Sequence record: PX880101.1
DNA: 64,000 nt
Direction: 5' to 3' (one strand)
Source of the DNA: a phage
Shown here: positions 28,736-55,037 of the stretch, one piece after another
Position numbering within the stretch: the first letter of the stretch is position 1
Layout of the letters: each line of letters starts with the position of its first letter
Position numbers and translations under genes: made by a program
Notes under the pieces: model-generated
Databases searched by the model: none
The model's input: only the letters and a program-made list of their open reading frames with translations
What the model was told of the DNA's origin: nothing

Positions 28736-28795
28736 TAAGATGTGAGTATAAAGGGGAGGCACTCCTCCCCACAAAAACTAAGGAAGCACTAAACG

Positions 28796-29493: not shown

Positions 29494-29505
29494 GGAGAAG
29501 GTGGT

Positions 29506-29988
29506 ATGTCAGATTTTATGTGGAAAGTTGGTTATTCCTCCCCTGAAATGTGTAAGGCCTGTTTTGTGAAAATAGGTCGCGAGGATATCGACAAAGTGAT
29601 TCTTAAGTTTCGTGATGTGGCTGTAATCGGCAACCGAGTGCTTAAGCACTTAAAGAATCTGAAGCTCACCAAAAAGAAGTTCTTTGGACTTTTCGAAGAG
29701 AAGGTTGATGCTTGGACCCATTGCATTCAGGAAGCTAAATCTCACTACAGTGCTATCATTACCCCAGAACGGGTAGCCAAGATGGAAGGATTCATCAACA
29801 GCACAGAGTTTGAGTGCCTGAAAGCTGCACTTGATAGTTATCCGAAATGCCTCAAGCACTTGGACAAGTATGTAGAAAAGGATGGGGAAATGTACCTAAC
29901 CCTGGACGCATATTATGAGATGCAAGAAATTTTAAATTTAGATTTGACATTGGTATCCACCGAGTATACAATAGGTATCCGGGTTTAA
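29506..29988 (+). CDS. hypothetical protein
   Basis: 160-aa ORF, RBS aaggaga. Confidence 0.5.
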   Translation: MSDFMWKVGYSSPEMCKACFVKIGREDIDKVILKFRDVAVIGNRVLKHLKNLKLTKKKFFGLFEEKVDAWTHCIQEAKSHYSAIITPERVAKMEGFINSTEFECLKAALDSYPKCLKHLDKYVEKDGEMYLTLDAYYEMQEILNLDLTLVSTEYTIGIRV

Positions 29989-29994
29989 CACTAG

Positions 29995-30021
29995 GCCCTG
30001 CCCGAAAGGGTGGGGCTTTTT
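29995..30021 (+). terminator. intrinsic terminator (repeated element, copy 1)
   Basis: gccctgccc-gaaa-gggtggggc plus T5; the same 22-nt hairpin recurs at 41057. Confidence 0.6.
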
Positions 30022-30039
30022 GCATTAGGAGACAGCAAA

Positions 30040-32872: not shown

Positions 32873-32930
32873 TGTTTAACAAAGAGTGGGAGGGGTAGTA
32901 CAACCGCCTCCCCTTTAAGGAGAACTGTAT

Positions 32931-35360
32931 ATGAGCATGTGGTCGTTCGATTTTGAGTCATCCGGTTTGCTGGAAGACCCAGATCTTTATTATCACTGCG
33001 GTCTGTTTAAAGAGCTGAATAAGAACCGTTTTATGCTGTTCCTTCCTCTAAATGACCGCACACACTACTCCGAGGAGGATATAGAAAAGGCTAAGAACTT
33101 CATTCTGGCAAAGAAAACTCTTTATAAAGATTTTGAAGTTCGCATAGCAGATTTTTCGGAGTTGGAAGGTTGGCTTACAGGCAATTCCGACTGGTCACCA
33201 ACAGCTTTGAACTGCCATAACTGCTACAGTTATGACTTTATGCTGATGGAGAGATTGTCCGGTATTCATTTTGATATGTTCCGTGATCCTAAATGCATGG
33301 GGACTATCAACGACCACCAGGTTAACCTGTTTGATACGTTGGCGATGAGCCGAATTTTGTGGCCTGATCGCCCTCTACCAAAAGGTTGTCCGGACGCTGT
33401 ATTCAACCCGGTTACTAAGAAAATGCAGCCTGTTGGTCCTCACGGCCTTATGGCATGGGGCTACGCCCTTGGTAACCAGAAAGTTCAAATTGATGACTGG
33501 CGCGATCTTCCGTTGTGGAAGTATGTGGATCGTGTATTCGAGGACGTTATCATCCAGGAGCTGCTCTGGAAAGAGCTGGTAGCGGAATCAAAAGGTGTAT
33601 TCTACGGCAAATCTGACATGCAGAACTTTATGTACGATCCTGCCAAAGAGAAGCCGAAAGGGTTCAAGAAGATCACCTGGAAGAACGCATTACGCCGGGG
33701 TATGCTGCAGCACTTCCTGATGGAGCTGCAGGCCCGTCAGGGTGTATATTTCGACATAGATGGAGCTATTGCTTTACGTGACCGTTGTGATGCGTGGATG
33801 AAAGAGATCGCTGATCGTGTTGAACCTCAACTTCCTTTAAAAGAGTTGTCAATGTCTCAGCGGCCCAAGTTCCCTGAAAAGCCGTTTAACCAAGATGGGA
33901 CAATCTCCAATAATGGTTGGAAATGGTTAAAAGATAAGCTTGGCTATCCTGTGGACATGAGCGCTTTAGAGTTCAAAGCCCCACCTAAGCGAGCATTTAC
34001 CTCCACAGGGGATGTCAGTAAGATGGGGATAAAATGGTGTGAAGAGATGGGCTGTAAAGACCCTGATAAGATGGCTGATTTCTTGAGGGGCTATATTAAG
34101 GGCACCTCCACACCACAACCTTTACCTAAAGAGCTAATGGATCAGGCAATAAGTGATCTACAGCAGAAGCGAATGCCTGACTGCAAGATACCTATGAAAA
34201 TCAGCAATCAGGACGACATTAAGCGATACCTGATCAGTGCTGGTTGGCTTCCGACAATGTGGAGAACTAAGGATGTAACTAAAGACAGCAAGAAGAAAGC
34301 TCTACCTGATGCAGATGTTGATGCACGAGTATATGCATATATGGACGAGCTTTTAGAGTCAGAGTATTGTGACCTGATTATCAACTTCTGGAACAAAACT
34401 GATGCTAAGTTCCAGACAACCGTGCACAAGTTCCGAAGCTTTCCTAACTCCGAAAGGATTAAAAAGGAAGTATTCGGGAAAATACGTAGAAAAGCCAGGG
34501 CACTTATTACTTCTCCGCAACTGAAAGATACGTTTGGACACCTATGTCCGAATCTTGAAAAATTGAACGGAGAGATGGCTAAAGATATCGTCTTGTGGTT
34601 ATCCTTGCGAAACCGCAGATCGGTCCTTGATCCAATCAAGGAGGATAAGGTTGATACTGGTCTTCTTAATCACCCACGTTTGAAGATTGACCATAAGCTT
34701 CCTGCTAAAAGTTCTGGATTAACAAACACTTCCCGACAGAAACACAGTATTTGTGCGAACATGCCTAAACCATCTCCTAAAGTGGTTATGGGTAAAGAGA
34801 TGCGTAGTCTGTGGGGTGTTCCTCCAGGATACTTTGAGATTGGTATTGACGGGTCCAACTTAGAGCAGCTTATCGGGGCTTGGGGTGCCTTTGAGTTCGA
34901 CAACGGCTTGTATTATGATGTTGTAAGTAACGGGGACGCACACCAAAACAATGCTGAGGCATATACAAAAGTAGCAGGTAGAGAGGTGTCTCGTAACGAC
35001 GGTAAACCTATCACGTATGGGGTTATGTATGGGGCACAAAAAGATAAAGTTGCAGATATGCTGGACATCTCTCCAGAGTTGGGACAAAGGGTAATCGATG
35101 CACTCTGGGATGCCAACCCAGGTCTTAAGGGGCGCAAAGAGGATCTGGAGAAATTCTGGGAAGCAACAGGTAAGAAGTTTATCTACTCTTTTGATGGTCA
35201 TGCTATCTGGACCCGATCTAAACACTCTTTACTTAATGCATACCAACAAAATGGCGGTGCATCGTTGTGTGACTTAGTTGGAATACTCATGCACCACCAG
35301 ATGGTGAAGCGTGGGTGGTACGATGAAGGTGTTCGTCGTATTATTTATTACCATAAATAA
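32931..35360 (+). CDS. family-A DNA polymerase, 5' exon with 3'-5' exonuclease and polymerase motifs A and B (inferred splice donor after 35354)
   Basis: Exo I FDFESSGL; motif A IGIDGSNLEQL; O-helix region RNDGKPITYGVMYG; the ORF stops at …RRIIYYHK* exactly where motif C (HDE) should follow. Confidence 0.75.
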   Translation: MSMWSFDFESSGLLEDPDLYYHCGLFKELNKNRFMLFLPLNDRTHYSEEDIEKAKNFILAKKTLYKDFEVRIADFSELEGWLTGNSDWSPTALNCHNCYSYDFMLMERLSGIHFDMFRDPKCMGTINDHQVNLFDTLAMSRILWPDRPLPKGCPDAVFNPVTKKMQPVGPHGLMAWGYALGNQKVQIDDWRDLPLWKYVDRVFEDVIIQELLWKELVAESKGVFYGKSDMQNFMYDPAKEKPKGFKKITWKNALRRGMLQHFLMELQARQGVYFDIDGAIALRDRCDAWMKEIADRVEPQLPLKELSMSQRPKFPEKPFNQDGTISNNGWKWLKDKLGYPVDMSALEFKAPPKRAFTSTGDVSKMGIKWCEEMGCKDPDKMADFLRGYIKGTSTPQPLPKELMDQAISDLQQKRMPDCKIPMKISNQDDIKRYLISAGWLPTMWRTKDVTKDSKKKALPDADVDARVYAYMDELLESEYCDLIINFWNKTDAKFQTTVHKFRSFPNSERIKKEVFGKIRRKARALITSPQLKDTFGHLCPNLEKLNGEMAKDIVLWLSLRNRRSVLDPIKEDKVDTGLLNHPRLKIDHKLPAKSSGLTNTSRQKHSICANMPKPSPKVVMGKEMRSLWGVPPGYFEIGIDGSNLEQLIGAWGAFEFDNGLYYDVVSNGDAHQNNAEAYTKVAGREVSRNDGKPITYGVMYGAQKDKVADMLDISPELGQRVIDALWDANPGLKGRKEDLEKFWEATGKKFIYSFDGHAIWTRSKHSLLNAYQQNGGASLCDLVGILMHHQMVKRGWYDEGVRRIIYYHK

Positions 35361-38171: not shown

Positions 38172-38463
38172 AAACATCACCCCAGCAGGGTTCTTAAAAG
38201 TATACCGTGAACTGCTATATACTACAGAGGACAGTGTTCTAGAGTATCCAGAATATCTTTTGCTGTATAAGTATCTGCAGGAGGCTGGTGAAAATCTGCC
38301 AGTTAGTGCAGAAGGTGGTCCAAACTGGATATACAGCGCATGGAGAAAGGTTGACATTCTCCCAGACCCAGGTAAAGATATGGTAGTTTGGCAGCTTATC
38401 AACAACATCGGGATTCCAATCTTTGATGAAGCTGTTAAAATCTATTTTGAACTTGACGATTAA
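38161..38463 (+). CDS. hypothetical protein
   Basis: ORF open from 38143; ATG 38161 preferred by RBS spacing. Confidence 0.45.
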   Translation: MKTENITPAGFLKVYRELLYTTEDSVLEYPEYLLLYKYLQEAGENLPVSAEGGPNWIYSAWRKVDILPDPGKDMVVWQLINNIGIPIFDEAVKIYFELDD

Positions 38464-38480
38464 TATCAGGAGACCTTAAG

Positions 38481-38726
38481 ATGACTGAAGCAGTTGCTCG
38501 CGCAGGACAGAAAGTACGTTGTGTTGAAGTGGGTTTTGGTGGCAAAGGGTGTCAAAACTTGACTCAAGGCAAGGAATATGCTGTTATCTCTGGTGGTGGC
38601 GACGAAAGTATTGTGTTCGAGGGCCACATCCTGGATGCTGAAAACTTTGAAATCTTTGACGACGATGGGGATCCGATCACCTGCCTGCTGGACGGGAATT
38701 GGGGAACTTTCGAAGTGATTGGCTAA
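38481..38726 (+). CDS. hypothetical protein
   Basis: 81-aa ORF, RBS aggaga. Confidence 0.5.
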   Translation: MTEAVARAGQKVRCVEVGFGGKGCQNLTQGKEYAVISGGGDESIVFEGHILDAENFEIFDDDGDPITCLLDGNWGTFEVIG

Positions 38727-38809
38727 CAAATACCTATTGTAATTTACAGAAGGGGATGCTAAAATAGTATCTCCTTCTATGTTGTTCAAATAAAATCGGA
38801 GATTCCATA

Positions 38810-39178
38810 ATGGAACAAATGAACGATCAAGAGTCGGTTGCGATGAACGAGCAAGAACAACCTCAAGAATTTTTCTTAGGGTTAAGTAAAGATCAAGTGT
38901 CTCTTTTGCTAGTGCTTTCTTCTTTCATGGGAAGACTTCAGGAGCTCACACAACAACCGGAGGCTGAACAATTATTTCAGGCTCTGCGTGAAGAAGAAAA
39001 ATATCGTCGTTTGGACTATGCCTTAGGTTGGGTAGCTCAACAACGAGATATGTTGATGGCCCTCTCTGGGACCACAAGTTTTGCAATGGGCCTGTTGGCT
39101 CAAGTTCAGGACAAATTAATTCAAGCAGGGTTTGCACACACGGCAAACACTAACGAAGAACAAGGAGACAAAGAATGA
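38810..39178 (+). CDS. hypothetical protein
   Basis: 122-aa ORF, RBS ggaga; preceded by a hairpin. Confidence 0.5.
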   Translation: MEQMNDQESVAMNEQEQPQEFFLGLSKDQVSLLLVLSSFMGRLQELTQQPEAEQLFQALREEEKYRRLDYALGWVAQQRDMLMALSGTTSFAMGLLAQVQDKLIQAGFAHTANTNEEQGDKE

Positions 39179-40446
39179 GCGTTATTCAACAATTCGCTAA
39201 CCCGATGAATCCGCGTGAAACTGTTTTACTGGCTCACGGCATGATTAAACGCGTCAGCATCAAGCCTATCAAAGGTGCTGATCCTACAACAGGTATTAAA
39301 ACCACTGTGTGGCAAGGTAAGAAAATTGAGTCCAGCCACACCATCTCTTTACTGATTTCTGAACTGGATTCCTCTGATAACCTACTTCAAGGTGGTGAAG
39401 AAGTTTGGATCAGTATGGGCGATAAGCTGCTTAAACCGGGTCATCAAGACTCTGTCTCTGTTAAAATTGATGACAAGTGGGAAACCGTAACGCCAGGATG
39501 GATCGTAAATATCCCTTTGAAGGCAAACGAGCATAACGGTAAGACCTACTACAAAGGCTCACTGGCTAAGATGGTTAAGCTGGGTGCAGGAGAGACTCCA
39601 GCAGCGACTCAGCAGCAAAAACCGCAACAAGGTGCACAATCACAAGGCCAGAAGCAGAAACCTCAGCAGAATGCCAATCAGGACGTTTTACGCATCTATG
39701 GTGATGTGACTCAGATTGTTGGCAACGTGGTTACTGTTAATGACCACAAGATTGGCGAAGGTGCTATGGTTGTAACTGATGAGCAGCTTAAAGACCTGGT
39801 GGTAGGTGGTCGTGTTGCAGCCATTGTTGACAAAGACACCGGAAACATTATCAGTGGTTTCAAAGCCTATCCTCCTAAGGCAGAGAACGGTACTCAAGGC
39901 TCTGGTGGCAAGCGTAAATCCTCTTACGACCCTATCGGTGTGGAAACGGGGCATAGCATCAATGCGTTGCAAATCATCCTGGATCGCGGGTTTAAGGTAG
40001 ACGACCCACTAGGAGTGGCTAAAACACTACACGTAGTCACTATTGAGCTTAAGAAAGAGTATGCTCAAGCCACCAACCGAACTGAAGATGAAGTAGGTGC
40101 CAGTGTCGGTAATGCGGTGTTGAACGCTTGTCGCCGTATTGACAAGAAAACGAAAGTTGATGATTTTGCAGCGGCAATTACTGCAGAAGCAAAAGATGTC
40201 TTGACTAATCTGGCTGAGCCGTTGTACGATTGGATCAAGAACGGTGCTGGGTCAACTGACCATCAAGAACCTCAGGCTGCCAAACAGGAAGCAGCTCCAC
40301 AGCAAAACACTGTAGACGCTCCTCCTGTAAATGATGGGGAAGATGACCCGATGGATCAGAATCCAGCACAGTATGACTTCTGTGATGACATACCTTTCGC
40401 TCCGGTAGGTCTGCAATATGGTAAAAGTAGAATCTACGCATTGTAA
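39175..40446 (+). CDS. putative ssDNA-binding/replisome accessory protein with Gln-rich linker
   Basis: 423 aa; low-complexity [26 protein letters not shown] linker; acidic …DFCDDIPF motif near the C-terminus recalls acidic-Phe tails of T7 replisome proteins; function unproven. Confidence 0.3.
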
Positions 40447-41041
40447 GAGGTGCATCAAGTGCGGAGAGGTGAAAAACCTCTCCGAGTTCTACAAACATCC
40501 AAAGATGGCTGACGGTCATCTTAATAAGTGCAAAGAGTGCTGTAAGAAGGCCAGCAGAGAGGCTGACCAGTTTTCCCACGACTCTTCAGAAAAAGGTGTA
40601 ATACGCGTGCTGTACAAGGCTCAAAAGTGCAACAGCAAGCAAAGAGGTCACCCTCCTCCGACTTACACCAAAAAAGAGTTTAAGGAGTGGCTATACCTGA
40701 ACGGTTACAAAGAGTTGTATGATCAGTGGGTAGCCAGCGGATACGACAAAAGGAAAAAGCCTTCTTGTGACAGGATAGATGATTTCAAAGGGTACTCTTT
40801 TGATAATATCCGTTTAACAACCTGGGGAGAAAATAAAGACAAGCAGACGGAGGATATTCTGTTGCATAGAAGCACCAGCGGTAGACGGTGTAAAAATGTA
40901 AGGAGGCTGGACATGAATGGCAACGTTCTTAAAGAATGGGTATCCCACAATTCTTGTAGAAGAGAAACCGGAATATGTGTTGATTACTACATTCATGAAA
41001 AAATTCCAGCTCCCGATGGATACCTCTATGAATACTTTTAG
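40418..41041 (+). CDS. HNH/zinc-finger homing-endonuclease-like protein
   Basis: N-terminal [19 protein letters not shown]…[11 protein letters not shown] zinc ribbon; later [26 protein letters not shown] resembling HNH-type nuclease motifs; overlaps the upstream gene by 29 nt. Confidence 0.45.
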
Positions 41042-41056
41042 CACCTAACTGACATA

Positions 41057-41085
41057 GCCCTGCCCGAAAGGGTGGGGCATTTTTG
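41057..41085 (+). terminator. intrinsic terminator (repeated element, copy 2)
   Basis: Identical gccctgcccgaaagggtggggc hairpin plus T5, directly after the HNH gene. Confidence 0.6.
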
Positions 41086-41103
41086 TATAAGGAGATCTGA
41101 AAA

Positions 41104-41520
41104 ATGACATTAGAAGATATCATTGTTAAACCTGAGAACTATGACCAATACAACCTGTCAACTCAATCTGTAGACCTTGGATGCGCCACGGTCAGTGCGT
41201 GGATGGTTAACGGAAAAGAGCTGGATAAATGCTTAGAAGCTCACATGTCTATTAACAAGTTTCTGGATGAAAATACTCACTGGCTTGAGGGTGCAGGTGT
41301 ATATGCTTCATGGTTGGAGAGTATGGGATTCGACTACCAATCTGAAGAGGGGTGGTGGAGCTATTTAGCTATCTGCCCAGAGACGCTGCAATGCTTCATG
41401 AAATATTCTGAAGATTTGGAGTACCGGGCGGTGGTTGATAGTGCTATTGCCCGTTATAGCCGTAAACCTTTTTCCCACGACATTAAAACTGTGGAAGAAT
41501 TTGTTGAAGTTTTCTGTTGA
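41104..41520 (+). CDS. hypothetical protein
   Basis: 138-aa ORF, RBS aaggaga. Confidence 0.5.
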   Translation: MTLEDIIVKPENYDQYNLSTQSVDLGCATVSAWMVNGKELDKCLEAHMSINKFLDENTHWLEGAGVYASWLESMGFDYQSEEGWWSYLAICPETLQCFMKYSEDLEYRAVVDSAIARYSRKPFSHDIKTVEEFVEVFC

Positions 41521-41616
41521 CACAAGTTGAAAGGTGTGCAATTATAACTTCATAGAACGGGAGGACGTGATGAACGAAGAAAACTGGGATGTATAACTAA
41601 CAGGAGGCCACTGCCC

Positions 41617-41814
41617 ATGATTTATCGAATCCGTGTAAGAGAAGATGCACCAGGCTGTTACTTTGACTGGCGTGGGTGGTGGTTTCTCCACCCAATGGAT
41701 GGACTCACAGATAGAATGCTGGAGGCTGCCCTTTATACAGATACCGACATAGAATATAATCTTTATCTGAAGGACGGTATAGATAACGGCCTGTTTGAAG
41801 CAATTCCTGTGTAA
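41617..41814 (+). CDS. hypothetical protein
   Basis: 65-aa ORF, RBS aggagg. Confidence 0.45.
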   Translation: MIYRIRVREDAPGCYFDWRGWWFLHPMDGLTDRMLEAALYTDTDIEYNLYLKDGIDNGLFEAIPV

Positions 41815-41882
41815 GAGACTATGATAGCCATGTTTTATGATCTTCCTGTAGCACCACCACCTGTTGAACCCGGAGAACTAAG

Positions 41883-42308
41883 ATGATCTATGAAATGCCA
41901 AAACTGATTCGCGACGATGCCCAAAACGCCCACACCTTTATCATGGGCAAGCGCATGGATATTATTTGTCATAAAGACTTCTGGGAAGGGAGTTACTTCA
42001 CAGAGTATTTTGGTAAACTGGACAATGGTCTGCTGATCCAGTTCTACACCGATGCGGAAAACAACATTCACTGGGAGTTCGAAACTGAAGATATCCATAA
42101 ACTTTTCACCTTCCTCGGTATTAAGGTTGAGGCCAAGTTTGAAGAAGGTGAGTGCGACGATTGTGGATTCTATGAGGTAACAGATTTCTACCTTCCAAGT
42201 GGTAAAAATCTCTACTACGAAAGCCACTTCGGCAACTCAAATATGCCACAGTGTTGGGATGAGTTTTTGGAAATTGCAGAAGAGGAGCTGGAATACCGTG
42301 ATTATTGA
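41883..42308 (+). CDS. hypothetical protein
   Basis: 141-aa ORF, RBS ggaga. Confidence 0.5.
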   Translation: MIYEMPKLIRDDAQNAHTFIMGKRMDIICHKDFWEGSYFTEYFGKLDNGLLIQFYTDAENNIHWEFETEDIHKLFTFLGIKVEAKFEEGECDDCGFYEVTDFYLPSGKNLYYESHFGNSNMPQCWDEFLEIAEEELEYRDY

Positions 42309-42756
42309 TACTGTAGAGGGAGATCTAATCTCCCTTTTCAAGAAAGGGGCAGGACACATGATCCACGGTTGCAACTGCTTTCACACAATGGGTGCAGGCA
42401 TAGCGAAAGATATTGCCCGTGAGTTCCCTCAAGCATTGGCAGCAGACAAAGAGACTGCTTATGGTAATCTAGACAAGCTGGGTATGTTTTCTTGTTGGGA
42501 GCATTTTGCCAAGAACAAGGTTGTATATGGAATCAACCTATATACTCAGTTCTACCCAGGACCTAATGCTGAATACTTCTCAATCATGAAAGGCTTTGAG
42601 CGAGTCAACGAGGTATTCAAAGGTATGTCATTACCGTTCTACATTCCTAAAATCGGATGCGGTATTGGTGGTCTAAAGTGGGAACACGTGGAAGACGTCA
42701 TTAATCTTGCCACCACCGACATCGATGTGATCGTGGTGGAGTACAAAAAGTGTTGA
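42296..42756 (+). CDS. macro-domain protein (ADP-ribose binding/processing)
   Basis: GTG start overlapping the upstream stop; VIIDTVEGDL…MIHGCNCFHTMGAGIAKDIAREFP and later IPKIGCGIGGL match the macro-domain glycine-rich loops; ORF open from 42199 upstream. Confidence 0.5.
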
Positions 42757-42810
42757 CGACCATCTTCTGAGGTGATATAGTTTCCACAACAACTAAGAGA
42801 GGAGAGCACT

Positions 42811-42981
42811 GTGGAGACTAAAATCTTAATTCTTGCTGTGGTAGATACAACCGAAGGAGCTATATTCGAATCTGCAGGAGGGTATTTCTACCTACCATAC
42901 GGAAAAAGAACTTCCGAGCCAAGTAAAGATTCAATCCTCAAAGTGTTCCCGTGTGCTTTCTGGCTGGAGATTTTGGTATAA
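42811..42981 (+). CDS. small hypothetical protein (56 aa)
   Basis: Not in ORF track; GTG start after RBS agaggagag. Confidence 0.25.
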   Translation: METKILILAVVDTTEGAIFESAGGYFYLPYGKRTSEPSKDSILKVFPCAFWLEILV

Positions 42982-43007
42982 GATTGCAGAGGATTTTGGA
43001 GAGAATT

Positions 43008-43202
43008 ATGAGAAACAAGAAAGAGCTTTACTCTGGCGAGTGGATTAACGATCAACAGATCGGAGAGGTAACCTGCTTCCGATGTTTTACCAGGTACAAT
43101 ATTAAAACTGCACCAAAAAGTGTTCCAAAGACTGACGGTTATTACATAAAAGAACCTCATTGCCCAAAATGTAAATGCCGATTGTACTGGAGCAATCTGT
43201 AA
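43008..43202 (+). CDS. small zinc-ribbon protein
   Basis: ATG 43008 after RBS ggagaga; CFRCF…CPKCKC cysteine pairs. Confidence 0.45.
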   Translation: MRNKKELYSGEWINDQQIGEVTCFRCFTRYNIKTAPKSVPKTDGYYIKEPHCPKCKCRLYWSNL

Positions 43203-43265
43203 GAGGTTGACATCTGAAAACTGCAGTGTATAATATACGCATAAACTAACAGAGAGTGATGTATT

Positions 43266-43457
43266 ATGGTAATTTTTAACCGGGATGGTATCATAGTTAG
43301 ACAGCACCCGTTCCTTGAATACTATCAAATTGAGCAATGGTGCTACGGGGATTGCAGTCACTCCTATGGGCAAAGTTGGGGATATCGCACAGTTTTTGAA
43401 TCAACAGACCTTGACAAAGTAAGACAGAAAGTTTTAGAACTTATTAACAACAAGTGA
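43266..43457 (+). CDS. hypothetical protein
   Basis: 63-aa ORF. Confidence 0.4.
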   Translation: MVIFNRDGIIVRQHPFLEYYQIEQWCYGDCSHSYGQSWGYRTVFESTDLDKVRQKVLELINNK

Positions 43458-43466
43458 GTATGATAT

Positions 43467-43799
43467 ATGGTAACATTAGAAAGACGTAAAGCTATCGCCG
43501 CCACACTGGCAGACATCTTTTGGGATTGCAACTTAAAAGATACCAGAAATTGTGGCGCATCTGTAGATGTATTATTCCCACGGCCCACCATTGTTGCAAT
43601 GGGAAACCTGTTAAACGTAGTGTACGGAGCATGGGACAAAGAAGGTGGATTCTATATCTGGCAACCTGACTACAGAGCCTGGAAAGAGGTAAGGGGTGCG
43701 GTTGACTTTGGGCCTGCAAGTGCTAAGATGGATGGCTGGGAAATTTATGTTGGAAACGACATGAAGCTGAAAGGCGAGATTGTTTACTGGTTACCTTAA
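43467..43799 (+). CDS. hypothetical protein
   Basis: 110-aa ORF. Confidence 0.45.
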   Translation: MVTLERRKAIAATLADIFWDCNLKDTRNCGASVDVLFPRPTIVAMGNLLNVVYGAWDKEGGFYIWQPDYRAWKEVRGAVDFGPASAKMDGWEIYVGNDMKLKGEIVYWLP

Positions 43800-43819
43800 G
43801 AAAGTGCAGGAGATAAAGT

Positions 43820-44065
43820 ATGAACAAAGGGTGGACATTTGTAGACGGAGTTAAAAACATGCCTCTAGGAAAGTATATCGTAGCCATGGCTGATGAGGAT
43901 GGCAATGTAGATTTCGGAGCTTGCGAGGTTGTTCTTGCAGGATCTGGTAACTATGTGAGTAAAACCGGGATAATTAACGGTCAGTTCTACTTTGATCACA
44001 ACCCTGTTGTAGCGTATATGGCTATGCCAGAGTTCAAGTTCCCAAAGGAGGGTGCAGATGTTTAA
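43820..44065 (+). CDS. hypothetical protein
   Basis: 81-aa ORF, RBS aggaga. Confidence 0.5.
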   Translation: MNKGWTFVDGVKNMPLGKYIVAMADEDGNVDFGACEVVLAGSGNYVSKTGIINGQFYFDHNPVVAYMAMPEFKFPKEGADV

Positions 44066-44255
44066 GCTTAAATCTGCATGGAACATCGCTGTGGGGGACG
44101 AGATCCGTATCCCAGGTGGAAAGACCATTATGAAGATATCTCGTATTGAGTACGAAGGTGACCGTGTATTCCACATCTTCGCAGAAGATGGTCGAGAAAT
44201 TTATATACAGGCAGGTTCTCACATTTATATCCGTAAGAAAGGGGACGACAAATGA
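44052..44255 (+). CDS. hypothetical protein
   Basis: 67-aa ORF, RBS aaggagg. Confidence 0.45.
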   Translation: MQMFKLKSAWNIAVGDEIRIPGGKTIMKISRIEYEGDRVFHIFAEDGREIYIQAGSHIYIRKKGDDK

Positions 44256-44581
44256 CAGAGATCATCATTTCAACTGCAGGGTATGTGTTCCTGACAATCA
44301 TTGCACTGACTATTTTGGTGACAGTGTATGGGTTTGTTATCCTTCCTATCCTTGAGACATTTAGTTTGTGTCGGTGTTGGAGAAAAGCTTACGGTCCACA
44401 ACCATGGAAGGACTGGCCCCACCTGGTGCGCTTAGCGTTCTCTTATGCTTACGATCACTCCAGTAGTGCATGCATAACCGGATACCACGCCCACAACTGG
44501 AGCTGGGAAGGATTGAGGAAATGGAATGTTACAAAGACCATACCTCTACGCATGTACAAACCTAAAAACAAAGACAGCTGA
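44252..44581 (+). CDS. membrane protein
   Basis: 109 aa; N-terminal TM segment IIISTAGYVFLTIIALTILVTVYGFVILPIL; last gene of the replication block. Confidence 0.5.
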   Translation: MTEIIISTAGYVFLTIIALTILVTVYGFVILPILETFSLCRCWRKAYGPQPWKDWPHLVRLAFSYAYDHSSSACITGYHAHNWSWEGLRKWNVTKTIPLRMYKPKNKDS

Positions 44582-44892
44582 TACTTGAAAATTCCTGGCA
44601 TATCAAGTGTAAGGGGGATTTCTAAAATGGATTTCCTCCTTTTGATATTTCACCGGGCTGGATATTTTAAAATTCTTAGAAAATCAGAAAATGGATCGAA
44701 AACTAAAATGGATTTTTCAGAGTAGGCGCGACAAGCTGAATAACTCATCCTATCGTTTGCACCATATTCCAGGCCACCATTATAGATTTCCCACACATGC
44801 TAACCTCCCTCTACTAGAACTTCCTCCACTTGCCCTTAACCTTCTATGGTAACAATCTAACCACTATCTTGAAGTTGCGGTGCAGCTTTCCA

Positions 44893-45025
44893 AGTACTCG
44901 ATCTACTTTTCATTTCATGGCTTGGATTTTCTGAAAATTTTTCTCGATAAATTTCTCAGTACTCGATCTGTTTTTCGTTTTCTGAATCGGATTTTCTGGA
45001 AATCGTTCCGGATCTCGACCTGAAA
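44893..45025. repeat. imperfect tandem direct repeat, two 65-bp units
   Basis: agtactcgatct…ggattttctg…ttctc occurs at 44893 and 44958 in the same order and spacing. Confidence 0.6.
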
Positions 45026-45130
45026 TTTTTGGGGACGAAATCGATTTTTCGTTTTCAGAAATGGATTTTTAAAATTTCTATATGGGAATATTTTATGGGA
45101 TACTGTTTTATAGGAAATTGTTACGGAGGG

Positions 45131-45148
45131 TAATTAGCATGCTAATTA
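45131..45148. repeat. 18-bp perfect palindrome taattagcatgctaatta
   Basis: Exact inverted symmetry seen directly; possible protein-binding site. Confidence 0.6.
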
Positions 45149-45216
45149 AATTTATTAAATGCGAGGAGTTCTCATTTAGAATTTTGAATGATAATCATTC
45201 TCGTTTGCAGAATAAC

Positions 45217-45258
45217 GGGCAGGCCCGGTGATTGTCTCCCGGCCCCTGTTGCCCCGGC
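45217..45258 (+). repeat. GC-rich repeated element, copy 1
   Basis: gggcaggcccggtgattgtctcccggcccctgttgcc; GC-rich island in AT-rich DNA; near-identical inverted copy at 54969-55013. Confidence 0.55.
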
Positions 45259-45356
45259 TTGTTATTATAGTATCACACAGGACAAAGAAAGCAAGGATTT
45301 TTTGCATAAATTTTTAAATGATAATGATAACCGTTCTCATTTTATGCAGCGCCCAT

Positions 45357-45396
45357 CCCCGGTGGTTGTCTCCCCCGTCACCGGTGCCTGCCGTCC
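45357..45396 (+). repeat. GC-rich repeated element, copy 2 (diverged)
   Basis: ccccggtggttgtctcccccgtcaccggtgcctgccgtcc shares the ggtgRttgtctccc core; the preceding aatgataat…tgcag is also duplicated at 45183 and 45315. Confidence 0.45.
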
Positions 45397-45598
45397 TTTC
45401 GATAGGTATATTTTGCCACCTGGCGGGGCCGCTGTCAACACTTTTCAAAAAAAAATTTCTAACCTGATGCGCTGACCGCTGCAACCTGGCGGGGCCAGCC
45501 TGGCAGGGCCTAACTGACCAGGTAGGAGATAATGAAGGCTTGCAAACCTGGTGGGCCTATGCTATAGGATAGGTAACAATTGAAGAGGAGGTACAAAA

Positions 45599-45775
45599 AT
45601 GGAAGGTAATATGATCCCCCTGGAAAATGTAGCTATTAATGACACTGAGGCTATCGCCCTGGTTGAAAAGGCTATGGCGGGAGCGTTGGAACATAAAGAA
45701 GAGTACGAAAAAATGATGGTTAACCTGGCAGGGGCGGCGGCTGGAGAATTCTACCCAAAAAATAATTTTAACTAA
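45599..45775 (+). CDS. small hypothetical protein (58 aa), first gene of the early array
   Basis: Not in ORF track; ATG follows strong RBS gaagaggagg at 7-nt spacing. Confidence 0.45.
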   Translation: MEGNMIPLENVAINDTEAIALVEKAMAGALEHKEEYEKMMVNLAGAAAGEFYPKNNFN

Positions 45776-45778
45776 TGG

Positions 45779-45807
45779 TTGACAGCTCGGACAGTTCTTG
45801 TTATTCT
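45779..45807 (+). promoter_or_regulatory. sigma70-like early promoter
   Basis: TTGACA-17 nt-TATTCT. Confidence 0.45.
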
Positions 45808-45860
45808 TATCCTCGCAAGGTGAACAACACCACACCAATTAACAGAGAGGATAAAAAATC

Positions 45861-46058
45861 ATGAACGCCTACGGAATTAAAGTACGTCGCAACACTCGCC
45901 AGGTGGTCACCAATCAAGTGATTTGCCGGGTGGATGTAACCATCAACAACGGGCAAGGCCTTTATAAATTTCGTCGCGGTCATAGCTATACCCTGCAGCA
46001 GCTTAACCGTTGCGCCCTGACAAAAGGTCAGATCAACCACTGGTTTAATAAAAAATAA
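45861..46058 (+). CDS. small basic hypothetical protein
   Basis: 65-aa ORF, RBS agagagga. Confidence 0.5.
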   Translation: MNAYGIKVRRNTRQVVTNQVICRVDVTINNGQGLYKFRRGHSYTLQQLNRCALTKGQINHWFNKK

Positions 46059-46061
46059 ATA

Positions 46062-46090
46062 TTGACACGTAGTCTGACACAAAATATACT
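46062..46090 (+). promoter_or_regulatory. sigma70-like early promoter
   Basis: TTGACA-17 nt-TATACT. Confidence 0.55.
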
Positions 46091-46122
46091 TAAATCACAA
46101 AAGACACTAAGAGGATAAAATC

Positions 46123-46521
46123 ATGAAAACTACAACCTTTAATTTTGACAATGCCGACTTCTCTTTTTCTGATGTTAAGAATTGCCGCCGTGATCGTGGA
46201 TTTTACAAGGCTTATAATCTGGTTGGCCTAGACGATGATAATAATTTGCACGAAGTAGCGGAGATCCGGTACTATGCCGCCGCCAGCGGTAACACTAACT
46301 ACTGCGTTTTTTGGATACACGACAACAAGAATAATAAGTACGGTTATACTGGTGGCAAGGCGAGCGGTCACGGTTATGATAAGGCCAATGCAGCACTTGA
46401 GAGCGCGTTAAATGCTATGGGGATCACTGCCAACGGCTGGATCTATGAAGATGAGTTTTTGTCAGCACTTGCTGCCCACCTGGGGTATAAAAAGCACATT
46501 GTGACATGCGCCCACGAATAA
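46123..46521 (+). CDS. hypothetical protein
   Basis: 132-aa ORF, RBS aagagga. Confidence 0.55.
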   Translation: MKTTTFNFDNADFSFSDVKNCRRDRGFYKAYNLVGLDDDNNLHEVAEIRYYAAASGNTNYCVFWIHDNKNNKYGYTGGKASGHGYDKANAALESALNAMGITANGWIYEDEFLSALAAHLGYKKHIVTCAHE

Positions 46522-46531
46522 AAAAAAATTA

Positions 46532-46560
46532 TTGACACGCTGCAAAATTAAAGTAAACTA
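46532..46560 (+). promoter_or_regulatory. sigma70-like early promoter
   Basis: TTGACA-17 nt-TAAACT, followed by leader hairpin ggcggg-aatgttt-cccgcc. Confidence 0.5.
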
Positions 46561-46608
46561 GACACAAAAGGCGGGAATGTTTCCCGCCAACACAAAGGAA
46601 AAAAGATC

Positions 46609-47004
46609 ATGAATAAGAACGTACGCCGCATCATGAACGAACTGGCAAACGATGAAAAAATTATTGATATGCATTTGGTAAACATTTGCCGCCGTTGTGT
46701 AACATATAACAACCGCGCCGCAAAAGCGCGTGAGATGAACGCAAAAGGCACCTTAAAGCCCTTTCAGGTGGTTGTAAAATCTATAACCAGTGCAGCAGAC
46801 CAGGCGCATGACCACAACAACGGGAGCACTAATATTGATCCGTCTTACGTAATGAAACGGATCCGGACTTGCAAGAATAAAGAGCAGGTGTATAACGTCA
46901 TAGATTGGTTGGACTCCCTGGGCGATGTGGTTTATAATAGGTTTTCTGCAGCTATCGAGATCCAGCTTGACAGACTGGACGGGAAAGTACTGAAAACTTA
47001 CTAA
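46609..47004 (+). CDS. hypothetical protein
   Basis: 131-aa ORF, RBS aaggaaaa. Confidence 0.55.
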   Translation: MNKNVRRIMNELANDEKIIDMHLVNICRRCVTYNNRAAKAREMNAKGTLKPFQVVVKSITSAADQAHDHNNGSTNIDPSYVMKRIRTCKNKEQVYNVIDWLDSLGDVVYNRFSAAIEIQLDRLDGKVLKTY

Positions 47005-47052
47005 GTTTATTTTTAGATGGCCTTGACGCCAGGGCCATCAATAAAGTAAACT
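47005..47052 (+). repeat. promoter-stem-loop cassette (PeSL-like), copy A
   Basis: ttatttttagatggccTTGACgccagggccatcaataaagTAAACT: 7-bp stem gatggcc/ggccatc with the -35 hexamer in the loop, -10 18 nt downstream. Confidence 0.6.
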
Positions 47053-47083
47053 AATCCCAGTTAAGCTAAAAGGAGGCTTGAAG

Positions 47084-47203
47084 ATGAGCACTACACGCCA
47101 GCACACAAAGGTAACTATTATCGTTTGCATCATTGGTTATATCCTGGCGCAAATGTTGATGGGTAGCGCCAACGGTGTCGCAAAATTTTTCTTAAACTTT
47201 TAA
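47084..47203 (+). CDS. small membrane peptide (39 aa)
   Basis: Not in ORF track; strong RBS aaaggagg; hydrophobic core IIVCIIGYILAQMLMG. Confidence 0.4.
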   Translation: MSTTRQHTKVTIIVCIIGYILAQMLMGSANGVAKFFLNF

Positions 47204-47231
47204 TTGACAAGCTAACTTAGATCGGTATACT
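47204..47231 (+). promoter_or_regulatory. sigma70-like early promoter
   Basis: TTGACA-16 nt-TATACT, then leader hairpin gggaaaacttccc. Confidence 0.55.
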
Positions 47232-47281
47232 AAACACATCAACGGGAAAACTTCCCAGAACACACAAAAGGAGAAAACACC

Positions 47282-47623
47282 ATGACCACTATGACCGCCG
47301 CAGAAAAAGCTATTCAGATCGCTGCCCTGAAAAAACAGATCGCAGACCTTGAGAATAAGATCGATAACTTTGAAATCGACGAGGACAAGTACGACGAAAA
47401 CTATGATGAATGGTTAGACGAGATCTACGGCGAAATTATGATCGGAAACATTTCTTTTCTTCCGTCGCGTATCCTCAAGGAGCTAGATCCTATCGCTTAC
47501 CGCTGCGGATTTAGCGACTACATCGACAGCCTGGATATTGAGGACGATGAAGAATACCAGGAATTACAGACAGAGTTGGAAGAAGCAAAAGAAGAGCTTG
47601 CGGAGCTGGAAGAAAACGAGTAA
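47282..47623 (+). CDS. highly acidic protein; candidate DNA-mimic/anti-restriction factor
   Basis: 113 aa with very high Asp/Glu content (…DIEDDEEYQELQTELEEAKEELAELEENE); RBS aaaggag. Confidence 0.5.
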   Translation: MTTMTAAEKAIQIAALKKQIADLENKIDNFEIDEDKYDENYDEWLDEIYGEIMIGNISFLPSRILKELDPIAYRCGFSDYIDSLDIEDDEEYQELQTELEEAKEELAELEENE

Positions 47624-47671
47624 GATTATTTTTAGATGGCCTTGACTCCAGGGCCATCAATAAAGTAAACT
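47624..47671 (+). repeat. promoter-stem-loop cassette (PeSL-like), copy B
   Basis: gattatttttagatggccTTGACTccagggccatcaataaagTAAACT; one mismatch to copy A. Confidence 0.6.
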
Positions 47672-47712
47672 TTATACTGTTAACACTGAACTAATGCATA
47701 GGAGTTAAAACC

Positions 47713-47958
47713 ATGGCAGCACTAATCACTAAATATTACGCCCCTACCAACACCAAAAGCGCCCGTATCATGGTAAAAGGCTTCGGACGTAAAAAGGTTT
47801 ACACCTGGGATTATGCCTTAGACACGGAAGACAACTACACCAACGCGATGACAGATTTTATTAATGAGCTGAACACGCGGATCTTGACAAATTATAAAAT
47901 TACCGATATTGCCTATATAGGGGAAGGCGGGATCTGTTTTGTCGGTATCGTCAAATAA
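47713..47958 (+). CDS. hypothetical protein
   Basis: 81-aa ORF, RBS aggag. Confidence 0.5.
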   Translation: MAALITKYYAPTNTKSARIMVKGFGRKKVYTWDYALDTEDNYTNAMTDFINELNTRILTNYKITDIAYIGEGGICFVGIVK

Positions 47959-48016
47959 ACTGTTTTTTCGGTGGTCCTGGTAGCAGGGCCATCTATAAAG
48001 ATAGTTTATCAATACA

Positions 48017-48388
48017 ATGAAAGGAGAAAGTAACATGATCAGTGGGGCAAGTTTTATTATTGGCGCTATTGCTACGGCTTTAATTGTAAACAAGATCCAA
48101 TCTAAAAACGAAAAAGAGAGCAACGCGCTCACAGAATACCCATTTTGGATATTCAACGACAATGAAGACTACATTATCAAGTACAAGAATGAGAAGGGCG
48201 ACCAGGTAACACCGCGACCGATCCCGGCCTACAAGATGCAAGAAACACTATACCGCCTAAAGGCTGGAGGCGCAAAAATCGTAGACTTTTGGGGATATGA
48301 TTGCAAGGATCAGGAGGTTATAAAACGGCGTATCCGGGCTATTCAGGCCAATATTGAAGTTAGCAAGGGGGGAATATATGAAGATTAA
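48017..48388 (+). CDS. hypothetical protein with N-terminal hydrophobic segment
   Basis: 123 aa, RBS aaaggag; preceded by a degenerate PeSL-like hairpin (47971-48000). Confidence 0.5.
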   Translation: MKGESNMISGASFIIGAIATALIVNKIQSKNEKESNALTEYPFWIFNDNEDYIIKYKNEKGDQVTPRPIPAYKMQETLYRLKAGGAKIVDFWGYDCKDQEVIKRRIRAIQANIEVSKGGIYED

Positions 48389-48575
48389 TTTTGAGAAGAT
48401 TGTAAAGCGATCTCATGATTCCGAAGAGCTGCCGGAACGCCGCCAGCGTAACAATAAACTGAATAAGCCAAAAAGATTTGGGAAGATCTGGCGGAATCAT
48501 TATGATCGTAAATTGCCGGGCCTCCTTTTGGAACGTGAACGGCAGGCGGAACGATACCGCCACAAAGGCAACTAA
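48378..48575 (+). CDS. small basic hypothetical protein
   Basis: ATG 48378 after RBS aagggggg (ORF open from 48354). Confidence 0.4.
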   Translation: MKINFEKIVKRSHDSEELPERRQRNNKLNKPKRFGKIWRNHYDRKLPGLLLERERQAERYRHKGN

Positions 48576-48583
48576 CAACCAAC

Positions 48584-48612
48584 GCCCCGCCATCGTGCGG
48601 GGCTTTTTATTT
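48584..48612 (+). terminator. intrinsic terminator
   Basis: gccccgc-catcgt-gcggggc followed by tttttattt. Confidence 0.65.
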
Positions 48613-48755
48613 CTACCCTACGAATAGCGCCCCTGGTTGGCCCTGTAAGCGCCAAAAAGGCCCCACCTATGCAATCGCCCCCTTTAACCTGAAAACATCG
48701 CTTAGGGCCGTTTTATGGCGTTAAAAATATCATTGACAGTGATTTTATTTAAAGC

Positions 48756-48783
48756 TTGACATCTTAAACAGGTTAGCTATACT
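48756..48783 (+). promoter_or_regulatory. sigma70-like early promoter
   Basis: TTGACA-16 nt-TATACT; a second TTGACA lies 23 nt upstream. Confidence 0.55.
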
Positions 48784-48815
48784 AACCACATCAAAGAGAG
48801 AAAGGAGTAAACGCC

Positions 48816-49076
48816 ATGCGTAAATTAAAAAATTTTGATAAAGTTGATGTTGTCCTGAATAATTTTTACTACTGCAACAACAAGGCCATTTGGTGGCGTG
48901 ATAGTTCCACCGATAAAGTCAAGGCGCGCTTTCTCCAGGGGCACTGGCAAGGCCGCCCAGTGATTAAAATCATGGGGCAATTGGTAGCGTTTAAAAATTG
49001 CCGCCGTGTTGATGACGTTGAGGAGATTTTAAACATTTTGCGCCACAATAATTTAAAAAATAGTGTTGACAAGTAA
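48816..49076 (+). CDS. hypothetical protein
   Basis: 86-aa ORF, RBS aaaggag. Confidence 0.5.
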   Translation: MRKLKNFDKVDVVLNNFYYCNNKAIWWRDSSTDKVKARFLQGHWQGRPVIKIMGQLVAFKNCRRVDDVEEILNILRHNNLKNSVDK

Positions 49077-49093
49077 ATCTCAATAAGTATAAT
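49066..49093 (+). promoter_or_regulatory. sigma70-like early promoter
   Basis: TTGACA-16 nt-TATAAT overlapping the stop of the upstream gene; leader hairpin ggcgggaaaacttaccgcc. Confidence 0.55.
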
Positions 49094-49150
49094 TAAACAC
49101 ACAGGCGGGAAAACTTACCGCCACTAACAAAGAAAACAGGAGAAAATATC

Positions 49151-49774
49151 ATGACCACCGTTAACATTACCACAGGTTACAATTTATCTTTCGACGTGCT
49201 GACCGACGAACAAAAAGAAAAAGCCATTGAAATGGTACGCGAAAGAGAAGAACACAGCGGGGATGACTTTTTTGCAGAAAGTGTAATTGAACACTACAAA
49301 GAATATATCTTTCCAGAGTACGGCCTTGAAGATACCGAAGTACATTGGTCCGGCTTTTGGTGCCAGGGTGACGGCGCGTCAATCAGTGCTGAAAACGTGG
49401 ATTTAGAAAAATTTTTGCGTAAAGTAAAGGCCCTGACCAAGTTCCGATCAATTCGTCACTTGTTCGGCACAATGCACGATGGCGAGTTATCAGCCAGTGT
49501 TGAACGCGACAAGTACAGCCATTACAGCCATGAAAACACTGTAAGCGGATACATTGATACCACCTGGCTAGATCTGACCGCCAAACAAGAAAACAAAGTG
49601 GAAGACCTGGAAGAGCTGATCACCGAGACGGTACGGGAGCTATCCCGCAAGGTTTACGTAGACCTGGAGGAGGCCTATCTAGAACAGTTCACTACCGAAA
49701 ACCTGATCGGCCTTATTGAGGCCAATGATTGGCGGTTTGATGTGGATGAATATGGAGAGATGAGTTTTTCATAA
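49151..49774 (+). CDS. acidic hypothetical protein
   Basis: 207-aa ORF, RBS caggaga; net acidic. Confidence 0.55.
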   Translation: MTTVNITTGYNLSFDVLTDEQKEKAIEMVREREEHSGDDFFAESVIEHYKEYIFPEYGLEDTEVHWSGFWCQGDGASISAENVDLEKFLRKVKALTKFRSIRHLFGTMHDGELSASVERDKYSHYSHENTVSGYIDTTWLDLTAKQENKVEDLEELITETVRELSRKVYVDLEEAYLEQFTTENLIGLIEANDWRFDVDEYGEMSFS

Positions 49775-54902: not shown

Positions 54903-54968
54903 ATAAAAAGTGTTTTGGTACTGATTTTGGGGTTGACTTGTTCGGCCCCTTTTGCTATTCTTATTAAA

Positions 54969-55013
54969 CGGGCGGCACTTGGGAACAGGGGGAGACAATC
55001 ACCAGGCCTGCCT
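54969..55013 (-). repeat. GC-rich repeated element, copy 3 (inverted relative to copy 1)
   Basis: Reverse complement reads caggcaggcctggtgattgtctccccctgttcccaag, about 30 of 34 identical to copy 1 at 45217. Confidence 0.55.
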
Positions 55014-55037
55014 GTCATATAAGAACTATAAAAACCG

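Follow-up and report, generated by a model that had tools for sequence, protein, structure and literature searches.

Promoters repressed by Fur, the iron sensor of enterobacterial hosts, have a recognizable layout. In sigma-70 promoters such as those of aerobactin (iucA), fhuA, and ryhB, a 19-bp 9-1-9 inverted repeat near AATGATAATnATTATCATT occupies the space between the -35 and -10 hexamers or covers them, and extra boxes are adjacent to it or overlap it. Fur boxes are also already known on phage DNA at the cargo genes of temperate phages, stx1 among them, where they control an accessory iron or virulence gene in the lysogen. Further Fur-regulated cargo of this kind includes sitABCD (lambdoid phages; PMC6969025). 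Here, we describe the intergenic region at positions 44,582 to 45,598 of a 64,000-nt stretch of phage DNA (record PX880101.1; the whole stretch is hereafter the window), in which predicted Fur boxes lie within the core non-coding architecture of a strictly lytic phage. By sequence comparison the window is from a Vequintavirus (rV5-like) phage of Escherichia coli, as the 1.6 kb around the region share 99.6% identity with Escherichia phages A6-1 and MaxTheCat and match 122 phage records, almost all of them Vequintavirus (rV5-like myoviruses). The main new result is that the palindromic box aatgataatcattctc is, judged by its sequence and distribution, a Fur box. We propose, with a probability of roughly 0.5, that rV5-like phages use this intergenic region, together with host Fur, as a conserved transcription-control hub.

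The hub compares well with the enterobacterial promoters in its layout. Its first Fur box sits exactly between a conserved TTGAAT and CAGAAT, and a box between promoter hexamers is the usual arrangement of Fur-repressed promoters. The second site is a pair (45317/45323) whose 6-bp offset is the classical overlapping arrangement. However, the hub is a non-coding part of a virulent phage with no iron gene downstream, and Fur binding to it and a response to iron are predicted. The hubs of related phages differ further from these promoters, in that their boxes are arrayed, for the most part every 29 bp, and keep a constant distance to an element specific to the phages. Compared with the cargo genes of temperate phages, the likeness is a host Fur box on phage DNA and the difference is its place in core non-coding DNA of strictly lytic phages.

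Predicted Fur Boxes in the Region and in Other Genomes

The Fur consensus is a 9-1-9 inverted repeat, which the palindromic box of the region, AATGAkAATCATTCTCrTT, resembles; GATAATGATAACCGTTCTC agrees with the classical E. coli Fur consensus at 16 of 19 positions. Across the window, seven sites match the consensus with at most three mismatches, where 0.12 would be expected (three in the region, three clustered at about 57.7 kb, and one weak site at 54265). The first-pass annotation, a reading of the DNA without database searches, had entered "aatgataat..." merely as the start of a duplicated unit of about 130 bp. This start is the Fur box itself, and the duplication exists but is confined to a module of about 55 nt (45187-45240 against 45323-45374; score 36, shuffle maximum 26), which consists of a Fur-like box, TGCAG, and then CCCGGTGrTTGTCTCCC. 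The overlapping box pair makes up the first part of the second copy of this module.

The company that the box keeps in bacteria argues for the same identity. The perfect 19-mer AATGAGAATCATTCTCATT occurs in at least 120 bacterial contigs, against a chance estimate of about 2. All open reading frames (ORFs) of at least 100 amino acids starting within 250 bp of these copies were collected, and 97 were left once ORFs cut by a contig end and near-duplicates had been removed by hand. They include 16 with a TonB-receptor plug domain, 13 with the matching barrel, six FUR, four FTR1, four ZnuA, and three siderophore-type periplasmic binding proteins, as well as FeoB and esterases. Such a gene set is, as far as sequence can tell, the signature of a Fur-family operator.

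The same pattern is common among viruses; the viral contigs that carry it number at least 120 and are highly diverse, unrelated ones and T5 relatives included, often as a perfect palindrome or in tandem. Among IMG/VR loci, tandem palindromes occur for example in L084, L076, L026, and L051, while in L023, L048, L050, L058, L090, and L096 the palindrome stands just after a TTGACA-17-TATAAT promoter and atcggcgcc. Ten phages of six other named genera carry one to five boxes upstream of the conserved element described below, the nearest always at 31 bp and the further ones mostly in 29-bp steps (offsets -60, -89, and, in one phage, -118). The hub of PBES02 has four good boxes and that of SD2 five, the latter with less regular spacing. 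In a limited literature search we found no earlier description of Fur boxes in these phages.

Arrays of this kind raise the possibility that the boxes act as decoys. As the phage genome is amplified, its near-consensus boxes would titrate Fur, so that the host's genes for iron uptake are turned on and supply iron-dependent processes, nucleotide synthesis among them. Multicopy Fur boxes do derepress the regulon in the Fur titration assay, the hubs of relatives contain as many as five good boxes in tandem, each with at most one mismatch, a second Fur-box cluster exists in the genome, and tandem arrays of perfect boxes are present in many unrelated viral contigs (L084, L076, L051). However, Fur is abundant in E. 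coli and the Vequintavirus hub has one good box and a weaker pair only. Boxes that keep a constant 31 bp to the element and stand between promoter-like hexamers also suggest local control instead of bulk titration, and we consider a decoy function quite improbable.

A Candidate Fur-Gated Transcription Hub

In the hub that we propose, the two halves of the region would have different tasks (Table 1). In the left half (44616-45100), the hairpin in the third tandem unit would end the upstream operon. The right half (45184-45600) would hold two modules, each with a Fur box, the element CGGTGrTTGTCTCC, and a -10-like site, along with a convergent minus-strand promoter and a candidate promoter for a rightward block of small genes. 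In iron-replete cells, Fur-Fe2+ would sit on the box between the hexamers of candidate promoter P1 and on the double box 130 bp downstream, and rightward transcription would be shut off or blocked. In iron-starved cells it would be released. Promoter activity and the direction of regulation are predicted here from the layout of the motifs. A regulatory hub had been one of the suggestions of the first-pass annotation, and it gains support from a conserved non-coding region in which Fur boxes are combined with a terminator-like hairpin and with promoter-like sites on either strand.

The promoter-like sites recur in related phages. In the second P1 hexamer GAAT is invariant in 17/17 aligned phages, and TTGAAT is present in most. 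Candidate promoter P2 has the counterpart TGTGTATAAT in Mydovirus and Certrevirus and ATAAGAAT in Phapecoctavirus. The minus-strand promoter has a counterpart in every genus (TTGACA or TTGCAA, 17-18 nt, TAnnnT), with a spacer of diverging sequence. GC-rich boxes of the CCTGGCGGGGCC type accompany these sites. Three had been listed, and they are present within 1-2 nt of where they were first placed (45419, 45485, and 45547), together with an unlisted fourth at 45499; window-wide there are eight against 0.36 expected, all on the + strand. Certrevirus has a different GC-rich box, CCAGGCCAGCCGGGCC, in the same two promoter spacers. A 48-bp segment bounded by CCTGG boxes (window 45515-45562) is absent from FV3, JEP1, slur12, and phita32, and its loss takes away the TTGCAA of the candidate rightward promoter. 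Outside the region, further CCTGGCrGGGCC-type boxes were seen at 52115, 52599, 57163, and 58092, all on the + strand, the one at 52599 making up half of a hairpin (GGGGCCgaaaaGGCCCC) that closely precedes the start of a gene.

Several points weigh against a Fur-gated hub. P1 is weak by consensus and is a candidate and not a call because each hexamer matches at only 4/6 positions, with an 18-nt spacer, below the cut-off of the scan; CAGAAT could alternatively be a further Fur hexamer. The -10 of the candidate rightward promoter (TATAGG) lacks the T that usually ends the hexamer. Downstream there is no gene related to iron, the ten flanking genes tested all being of unknown function or unrelated, and repression of part of the lytic program in iron-replete cells would have no obvious benefit. 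A further copy of the conserved element at 55 kb has no Fur box, and the role of the element is therefore not tied to Fur. Finally, the hub model leaves the iteron-like repeats and the near-total base fixation of 44896-45215 unexplained. If Fur really binds, rV5-like phages, which are widely considered for therapy, would read the iron state of the host, and the outcome of infection could depend on iron because the gut and infected tissue are both iron-limited.

Coding Status and Conservation

The region had been described as free of ORFs. In function this stands, as no coding signature was found; mechanically it does not, since ORFs of up to 95 amino acids are present. GenBank records annotate between zero and four ORFs here, with inconsistent coordinates. 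In an alignment of nine Vequintavirus sequences, variable sites by codon position number 12/15/14 in the 95-amino-acid ORF and 16/16/19 in a 48-amino-acid minus-strand ORF, compared with 6/8/17 in the real upstream gene, and both ORFs are broken by stops or frameshifts in some relatives. A protein-coding reading was rejected on these grounds (no third-position bias, stops in relatives), as was a minus-strand mini-gene in the variable spacer, whose frame is not conserved and which has stops in relatives. Among nine internal ORFs scanned, the 95- and 48-amino-acid ones match PHROGs (phrog_14993 and phrog_35702); we read these matches as a by-product of the fact that those ORFs are annotated in deposited genomes. 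On this evidence, the region is non-coding.

The core of the region (44896-45215) is, by alignment, at least as conserved as coding DNA (0.95 against 0.91), with no apparent coding signature. The measured identities (0.95 and 0.92 against 0.91) moderated a first impression of conservation far above that of coding DNA. The low identity of the last segment reflects the 48-bp indel between CCTGG boxes. A sensitive search extended the conservation beyond the genus, with 45146-45303 sharing 70-88% DNA identity with phages of Phapecoctavirus, Justusliebigvirus, Mydovirus, Seunavirus, Certrevirus, and Henunavirus and with a Serratia phage, most of these matches falling in unannotated DNA. Across genera the features follow a shared order. 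GATATTT and GAAATGGwTTT repeats come directly after the upstream gene and are followed by a variable spacer and then, in most genera, by three tandem repeats of about 65-75 bp, whose core is mostly CTCGATCG and which often include an A/T palindrome. After these come one to five palindromic boxes, the element GGCAGGnnYGGTGwTTGTCTC, an extended -10-like site, the conserved minus-strand promoter, and a rightward promoter for the next genes. This feature order is preserved across two phage subfamilies (Vequintavirinae and Stephanstirmvirinae genera were sampled).

Two dinucleotide polymorphisms, at 45223-45224 (GG/CC) and 45249-45250 (GT/AC), have alleles that are mutually reverse complementary. 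All four combinations occur among Vequintavirus genomes, and the flips are not compensatory because each varies independently of the other. Certrevirus shows the GG/CC dimorphism at the equivalent position, and the Mydovirus loci have the CC form only.

Table 1. Features of the intergenic region and its surroundings. Positions refer to the window, except for the named loci of relatives; identities are mean pairwise values among eight Vequintavirus sequences.
Feature	Position	Strand	Remarks
Dda-like helicase gene	27027-28397		
DNA methyltransferase gene	30010-30804		
Primase-helicase gene	30794-32872		
DNA polymerase gene	32931-35360		
Flanking genes			identity 0.91
Segment with direct repeats	44612-44722		identity 0.92
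Co-oriented GGATTTY/AAATGGATY direct-repeat cluster	44616-44716	+	beside two GATATTT motifs
Hypervariable spacer	44723-44895		identity 0.73; C-rich on the + strand, GC skew about -0.5; no conserved ORF
Three tandem units, 65-74 bp	44884-45100	+	AGTACTCGATCT ... GGATTTTCTG ... A/T-tract
Core	44896-45215		identity 0.95
Terminator-like site within third tandem unit	45025-45072	+	16-bp hairpin, then T-run; pattern scan
Palindrome taattagcatgctaatta	45131-45148		inside AT-rich tract 45050-45200
Candidate promoter P1	45184-45213	+	TTGAAT (45184-45189), 18-nt spacer holding the Fur box, CAGAAT (45208-45213); read from sequence
Predicted Fur box 1, AATGATAATCATTCTCGTT	45187-45205		1 mismatch to 9-1-9 consensus AATGAKAATNATTMTCATT
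Segment with element copies	45216-45514		identity 0.92
Conserved element GGCAGGCCCGGTGATTGTCTCC	45218-45239	+	aligns across 17 phages
Candidate promoter P2	45260-45271	+	extended -10-like site TGtTATTATAGT; read from sequence
Predicted Fur box pair 2	45317-45341		two overlapping sites offset by 6 bp (45317, 45323); 3 and 2 mismatches
Second element copy CGGTGGTTGTCTCC	45360-45373	+	repeat family D12; then -10-like TATATT at 45407-45412
Sigma-70-like promoter facing P1 and P2	45410-45438	-	TTGACA-17-CAAAAT with TG; pattern scan
Four CCTGGyrGGSC boxes	45419-45558	+	45419, 45485, 45499, 45547; two within promoter spacers
Last segment	45515-45598		identity 0.60
Candidate rightward promoter	45540-45601	+	TTGCAA-17-TATAGG (45540-45568), ribosome site GAGGAGG, ATG 45599; read from sequence
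Promoter of next small gene	45779-45807		TTGACA-17-TATTCT
Promoter of second next small gene	46062-46090		TTGACA-17-TATACT
Third, inverted element copy	54960-55020	-	GGCAGGCCTGGTGATTGTCTCC ... ATAAGAATAGCA plus ATAAGAAT; no Fur box; in 219-bp gap between + strand genes
Second Fur-box cluster	57682-57834		57682, 57700, 57816; in second non-coding stretch, outside the region
Lone minus-strand gene, relatives	L004 2794-2976; L005 2826-3011; L006 2780-3046; L003 3314-3580	-	

The Left Half and the Question of a Replication Origin

The first-pass annotation had placed the region directly downstream of the replication module and proposed it as an origin. The placement is wrong, as the DNA polymerase gene ends 9.2 kb upstream at 35360, at a distance of about 25 small genes; an endonuclease VII gene and a phosphatase-like gene also lie between. 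The repeats that suggested an origin are real. Its four AAATGGATY "iterons" were all recovered (44625, 44689, 44706, and 45059). Four copies in the 64-kb window, against 2.2 expected, are not above chance, but all four lie within 443 bp (44625-45067), for which the chance, estimated post hoc, is about 1e-6; their spacing is irregular (64, 17, and 353 bp). GGATTTY has 7 of its 27 window copies in 44616-45301, all on the + strand, where about 0.3 would be expected. All nine Vequintavirus sequences agree at nearly every position of 44612-44722, and similar GATATTT and GAAATGGwTTT repeats occupy the same place in PVP-SE1, BIS47, and Hena1.

A tandem repeat reported as two copies of 65 bp exists but has three units (starting at 44884/44893, 44949/44958, and 45023, spaced by 65 and 74 bp), with local alignment scores of 47, 35, and 24 (shuffled sequences average about 14); the three-unit repeat was not reported by TRF. 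The units are near-invariant within Vequintavirus, and the corresponding location in Seunavirus, Mydovirus, Serratia phage Kashira, and Henunavirus has three tandem repeats of about 65-75 bp, mostly with the CTCGATCG core and GAAAAAATTTTT, while the Certrevirus repeats retain the core. The hairpin at 45025-45062 (16 pairs, 3 of them G-C, then GGATTTTTAA; z = -2.6) is the sole significantly stable fold of the region and, combining a stable stem-loop with a T-run, is terminator-like by sequence. The 18-bp perfect palindrome at 45131-45148 was confirmed as exact and unique. Its dyad is weakly constrained, because one-sided changes in relatives (GCGTGC, CTAACTA) break the symmetry. GATATTTG and GGATATTT showed no window-wide enrichment.

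Described origins of the iteron type (lambda ori, P1 oriR, and those of plasmids) and of the promoter/AT-tract type (the T7 primary origin, T4 oriF/oriG) likewise have direct repeats, an AT-rich tract, or nearby promoters. At the hub, a phage or host initiator would bind the GGATTTY/AAATGGAT repeats and the tandem units, the AT-rich tract at 45050-45200 would melt, and transcription from the flanking promoters would activate or prime replication. Consistent with this, co-oriented direct repeats are clustered (four AAATGGATY, seven GGATTTY), and next after the three conserved tandem units comes a tract with a GC content of 27-28% (window about 44%) that would serve for unwinding. Convergent promoters adjoin, from which, reading the sequence, the minus-strand transcript would be G-rich over 45220-45400, and the repeat cores of relatives contain GATC, the phage encoding a DNA methyltransferase. 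In other phage contigs Fur palindromes adjoin DnaA-box clusters, perfect DnaA boxes being 7.5-fold denser within 300 bp of the palindrome across the 120 viral loci compared (p about 2.5e-12), although these loci are non-independent and the contrast is largely one of non-coding with coding DNA. In rV5 itself, the authors of the study were unable to place the origin by skew analysis (PMC3606486).

Unlike the described origins, the hub has irregularly spaced repeats, no adjacent or overlapping initiator gene (none among the ten flanking genes, with the replication genes at 27027-35360), and no DnaA box TTATCCACA with at most one mismatch within 38404-49741. The drop of GC skew to about 0 at 44-45 kb does not exceed what a non-coding gap in an array of + strand genes would produce. 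The best-studied region of similar appearance, the repeat-rich non-coding region of T5, is considered an unlikely origin in the Davison preprint, because T5 origins map near the genome center (10.1101/866236). Only the left half looks origin-like, and beyond direct repeats beside an AT-rich tract the origin reading is, at the level of sequence, unsupported. We consider it unlikely.

RNA Searches

A further reading of the right half is that P1 or P2 drives a Fur-controlled small RNA, a phage counterpart of RyhB, with the conserved single-stranded CGGUGAUUGUCUC as its seed. The Fur box does stand in a promoter-like context and is followed by 45 highly conserved nt without an ORF. In other genera there is, in addition, an extra block of about 100 nt downstream of the element, with a hairpin that has conserved G:U pairs possible on the + strand only, one compensatory pair (C:G to A:U in 3/13 sequences), and a U-rich tail. 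However, this block is absent from Vequintavirus, where the second module takes its place, and there is no clear terminator after unit 1. Rfam searches at a permissive threshold gave chance-level matches only (best 22.8 bits against a gathering score of 126), fold z-scores ranged from -1.4 to +0.6 on both strands, and RNAalifold found essentially no conserved structure in the element (-3.3 kcal/mol). We regard a small RNA of this type as very doubtful. That unit 1, unit 2, the tandem repeats, or the antisense strands form stable RNA folds was rejected, since their folds do not surpass those of shuffled controls. The earlier suggestion that the 65-bp repeat might be a small-RNA gene finds no support, with fold z-scores of +0.2 on both strands and no Rfam match. 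A link to the pseudo-ToxI of phage phiTE (ToxI-like 36-nt repeats) was also rejected, as that locus is a different one, flanked by tRNA genes on one side and phiTE_203 on the other, with the terminase gene a few genes further on.

Comparison With the T5 iss and Possible Genome Ends

The T5 iss (injection-stop region; Repeat Region 3 of the left terminal repeat) resembles the hub in several ways. Both have at least 1 kb of non-coding DNA with direct repeats and palindromes in a conserved order, conservation at least equal to that of neighboring genes, boxes for host DNA-binding proteins, a location several kb from a genome end (a putative one in the case of the hub), and small early genes alongside. 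The Davison preprint describes the T5 region as more strictly conserved than coding DNA and its repeat order as fixed (10.1101/866236). The iss of the T5-like phage DT571/2 likewise carries an array of about ten Fur-like repeats beside DnaA boxes, within the untranslated portion of its left terminal repeat. In detail, its locus (L051 6560-7260; record 7160-7860) has two DnaA boxes, about ten Fur-like repeats of 22-24 bp, and five gtgcaaatccgac repeats. The Fur-like repeats are possibly among the direct repeats of the T5 literature (e.g., the nine DRD copies), and word searches of the Davison preprint turned up no mention of Fur (10.1101/866236).

By analogy, the hub may be a cis-acting nucleoprotein site of the iss kind, in which host proteins (here Fur) on ordered repeats about 12 kb from the genome end would set apart the small early genes of a terminal block in the course of DNA entry or the early takeover. 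The hub is a large non-coding region with ordered repeats and palindromes and at least gene-level conservation, as such a site should be. In the Mydovirus KPP-1, a 514-bp direct terminal repeat, placed where gene orientation converges, lies 8.3-8.9 kb from the hub, and the intervening annotated genes (those between the hub's own minus-strand ORF and the terminal repeat) all run toward the repeat (PMC9862379). Fur-like boxes are present in the KPP-1 repeat and at the matching site of the window at 57.7 kb, 12.5 kb from the hub, and the conserved element is repeated near both borders of the terminal block. A similar but weaker copy of the element (3 mismatches) was seen 9-11 kb from the hub in the Mydovirus loci.

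Against an iss-like site, T5 has paired DnaA boxes, terminal repeats of 8-10 kb, and a proven two-step injection, whereas the hub is without DnaA boxes, let alone the T5-type pair, and fixed ends of rV5-like phages are disputed because circular permutation has been reported for rV5, PVP-SE1, and phiTE and headful packaging was inferred in a 2026 Vequintavirus paper. The match between the KPP-1 repeat and the window DNA is weak (37 nt at 81%, E = 0.006). We would give an iss-like role little probability. That the region is itself a physical genome end was rejected, the KPP-1 repeat being 8-9 kb away. A tBLASTn search of the KPP-1 small proteins against the window gave nothing at E <= 1e-3.

The second non-coding stretch of the window, at about 56.7-58.2 kb, has a GC content of 0.38 at 56-57 kb. 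It contains repeated gtaaacag, aactatag...ctaatagttgcc, three copies of GATATTTG, and one CCTGGCGGGGCA box. It matches the KPP-1 terminal repeat in position and, by its distance from the hub, fits the rV5 gene 163/164 convergence point (PMC3606486). It may hold a genome end.

A broader proposal would make host Fur a built-in structural or regulatory part of cis-acting hubs in large virulent phages. Its clusters would bracket the terminal early block of about 12 kb in rV5-like phages and occupy the injection-stop region of T5, and iron status would gate DNA entry, early takeover, or the start of replication across unrelated families. We advance this as a speculation that is improbable as it stands. 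The finding of predicted Fur boxes offers a concrete handle on this region and on the long-standing puzzle of the T5 iss repeats.

Gene Neighborhood

The upstream gene (44252-44581) and the downstream gene (45599-45775), the first after the region (ATG 45599), both belong to PHROG families without known function, the latter matching phrog_21957. Ten flanking genes were tested, of which nine have PHROG matches without known function and one hits a phosphatase family. A pattern scan gave each of the next two small genes downstream its own near-consensus sigma-70 promoter, which suggests a block of separately driven, putative early-type genes. A lone small minus-strand gene was seen to the right of the hub in several other genera (PVP-SE1 gp201, BIS47_204, Kashira_02290, and anhysbys_79); it is absent in Vequintavirus, Certrevirus, and Henunavirus. 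Among the database matches, 16-17 "Campylobacter phage" records (MG0656xx, with C. jejuni given as host) share 90-97% identity with the region, which is unannotated in them, and their host labels look doubtful.

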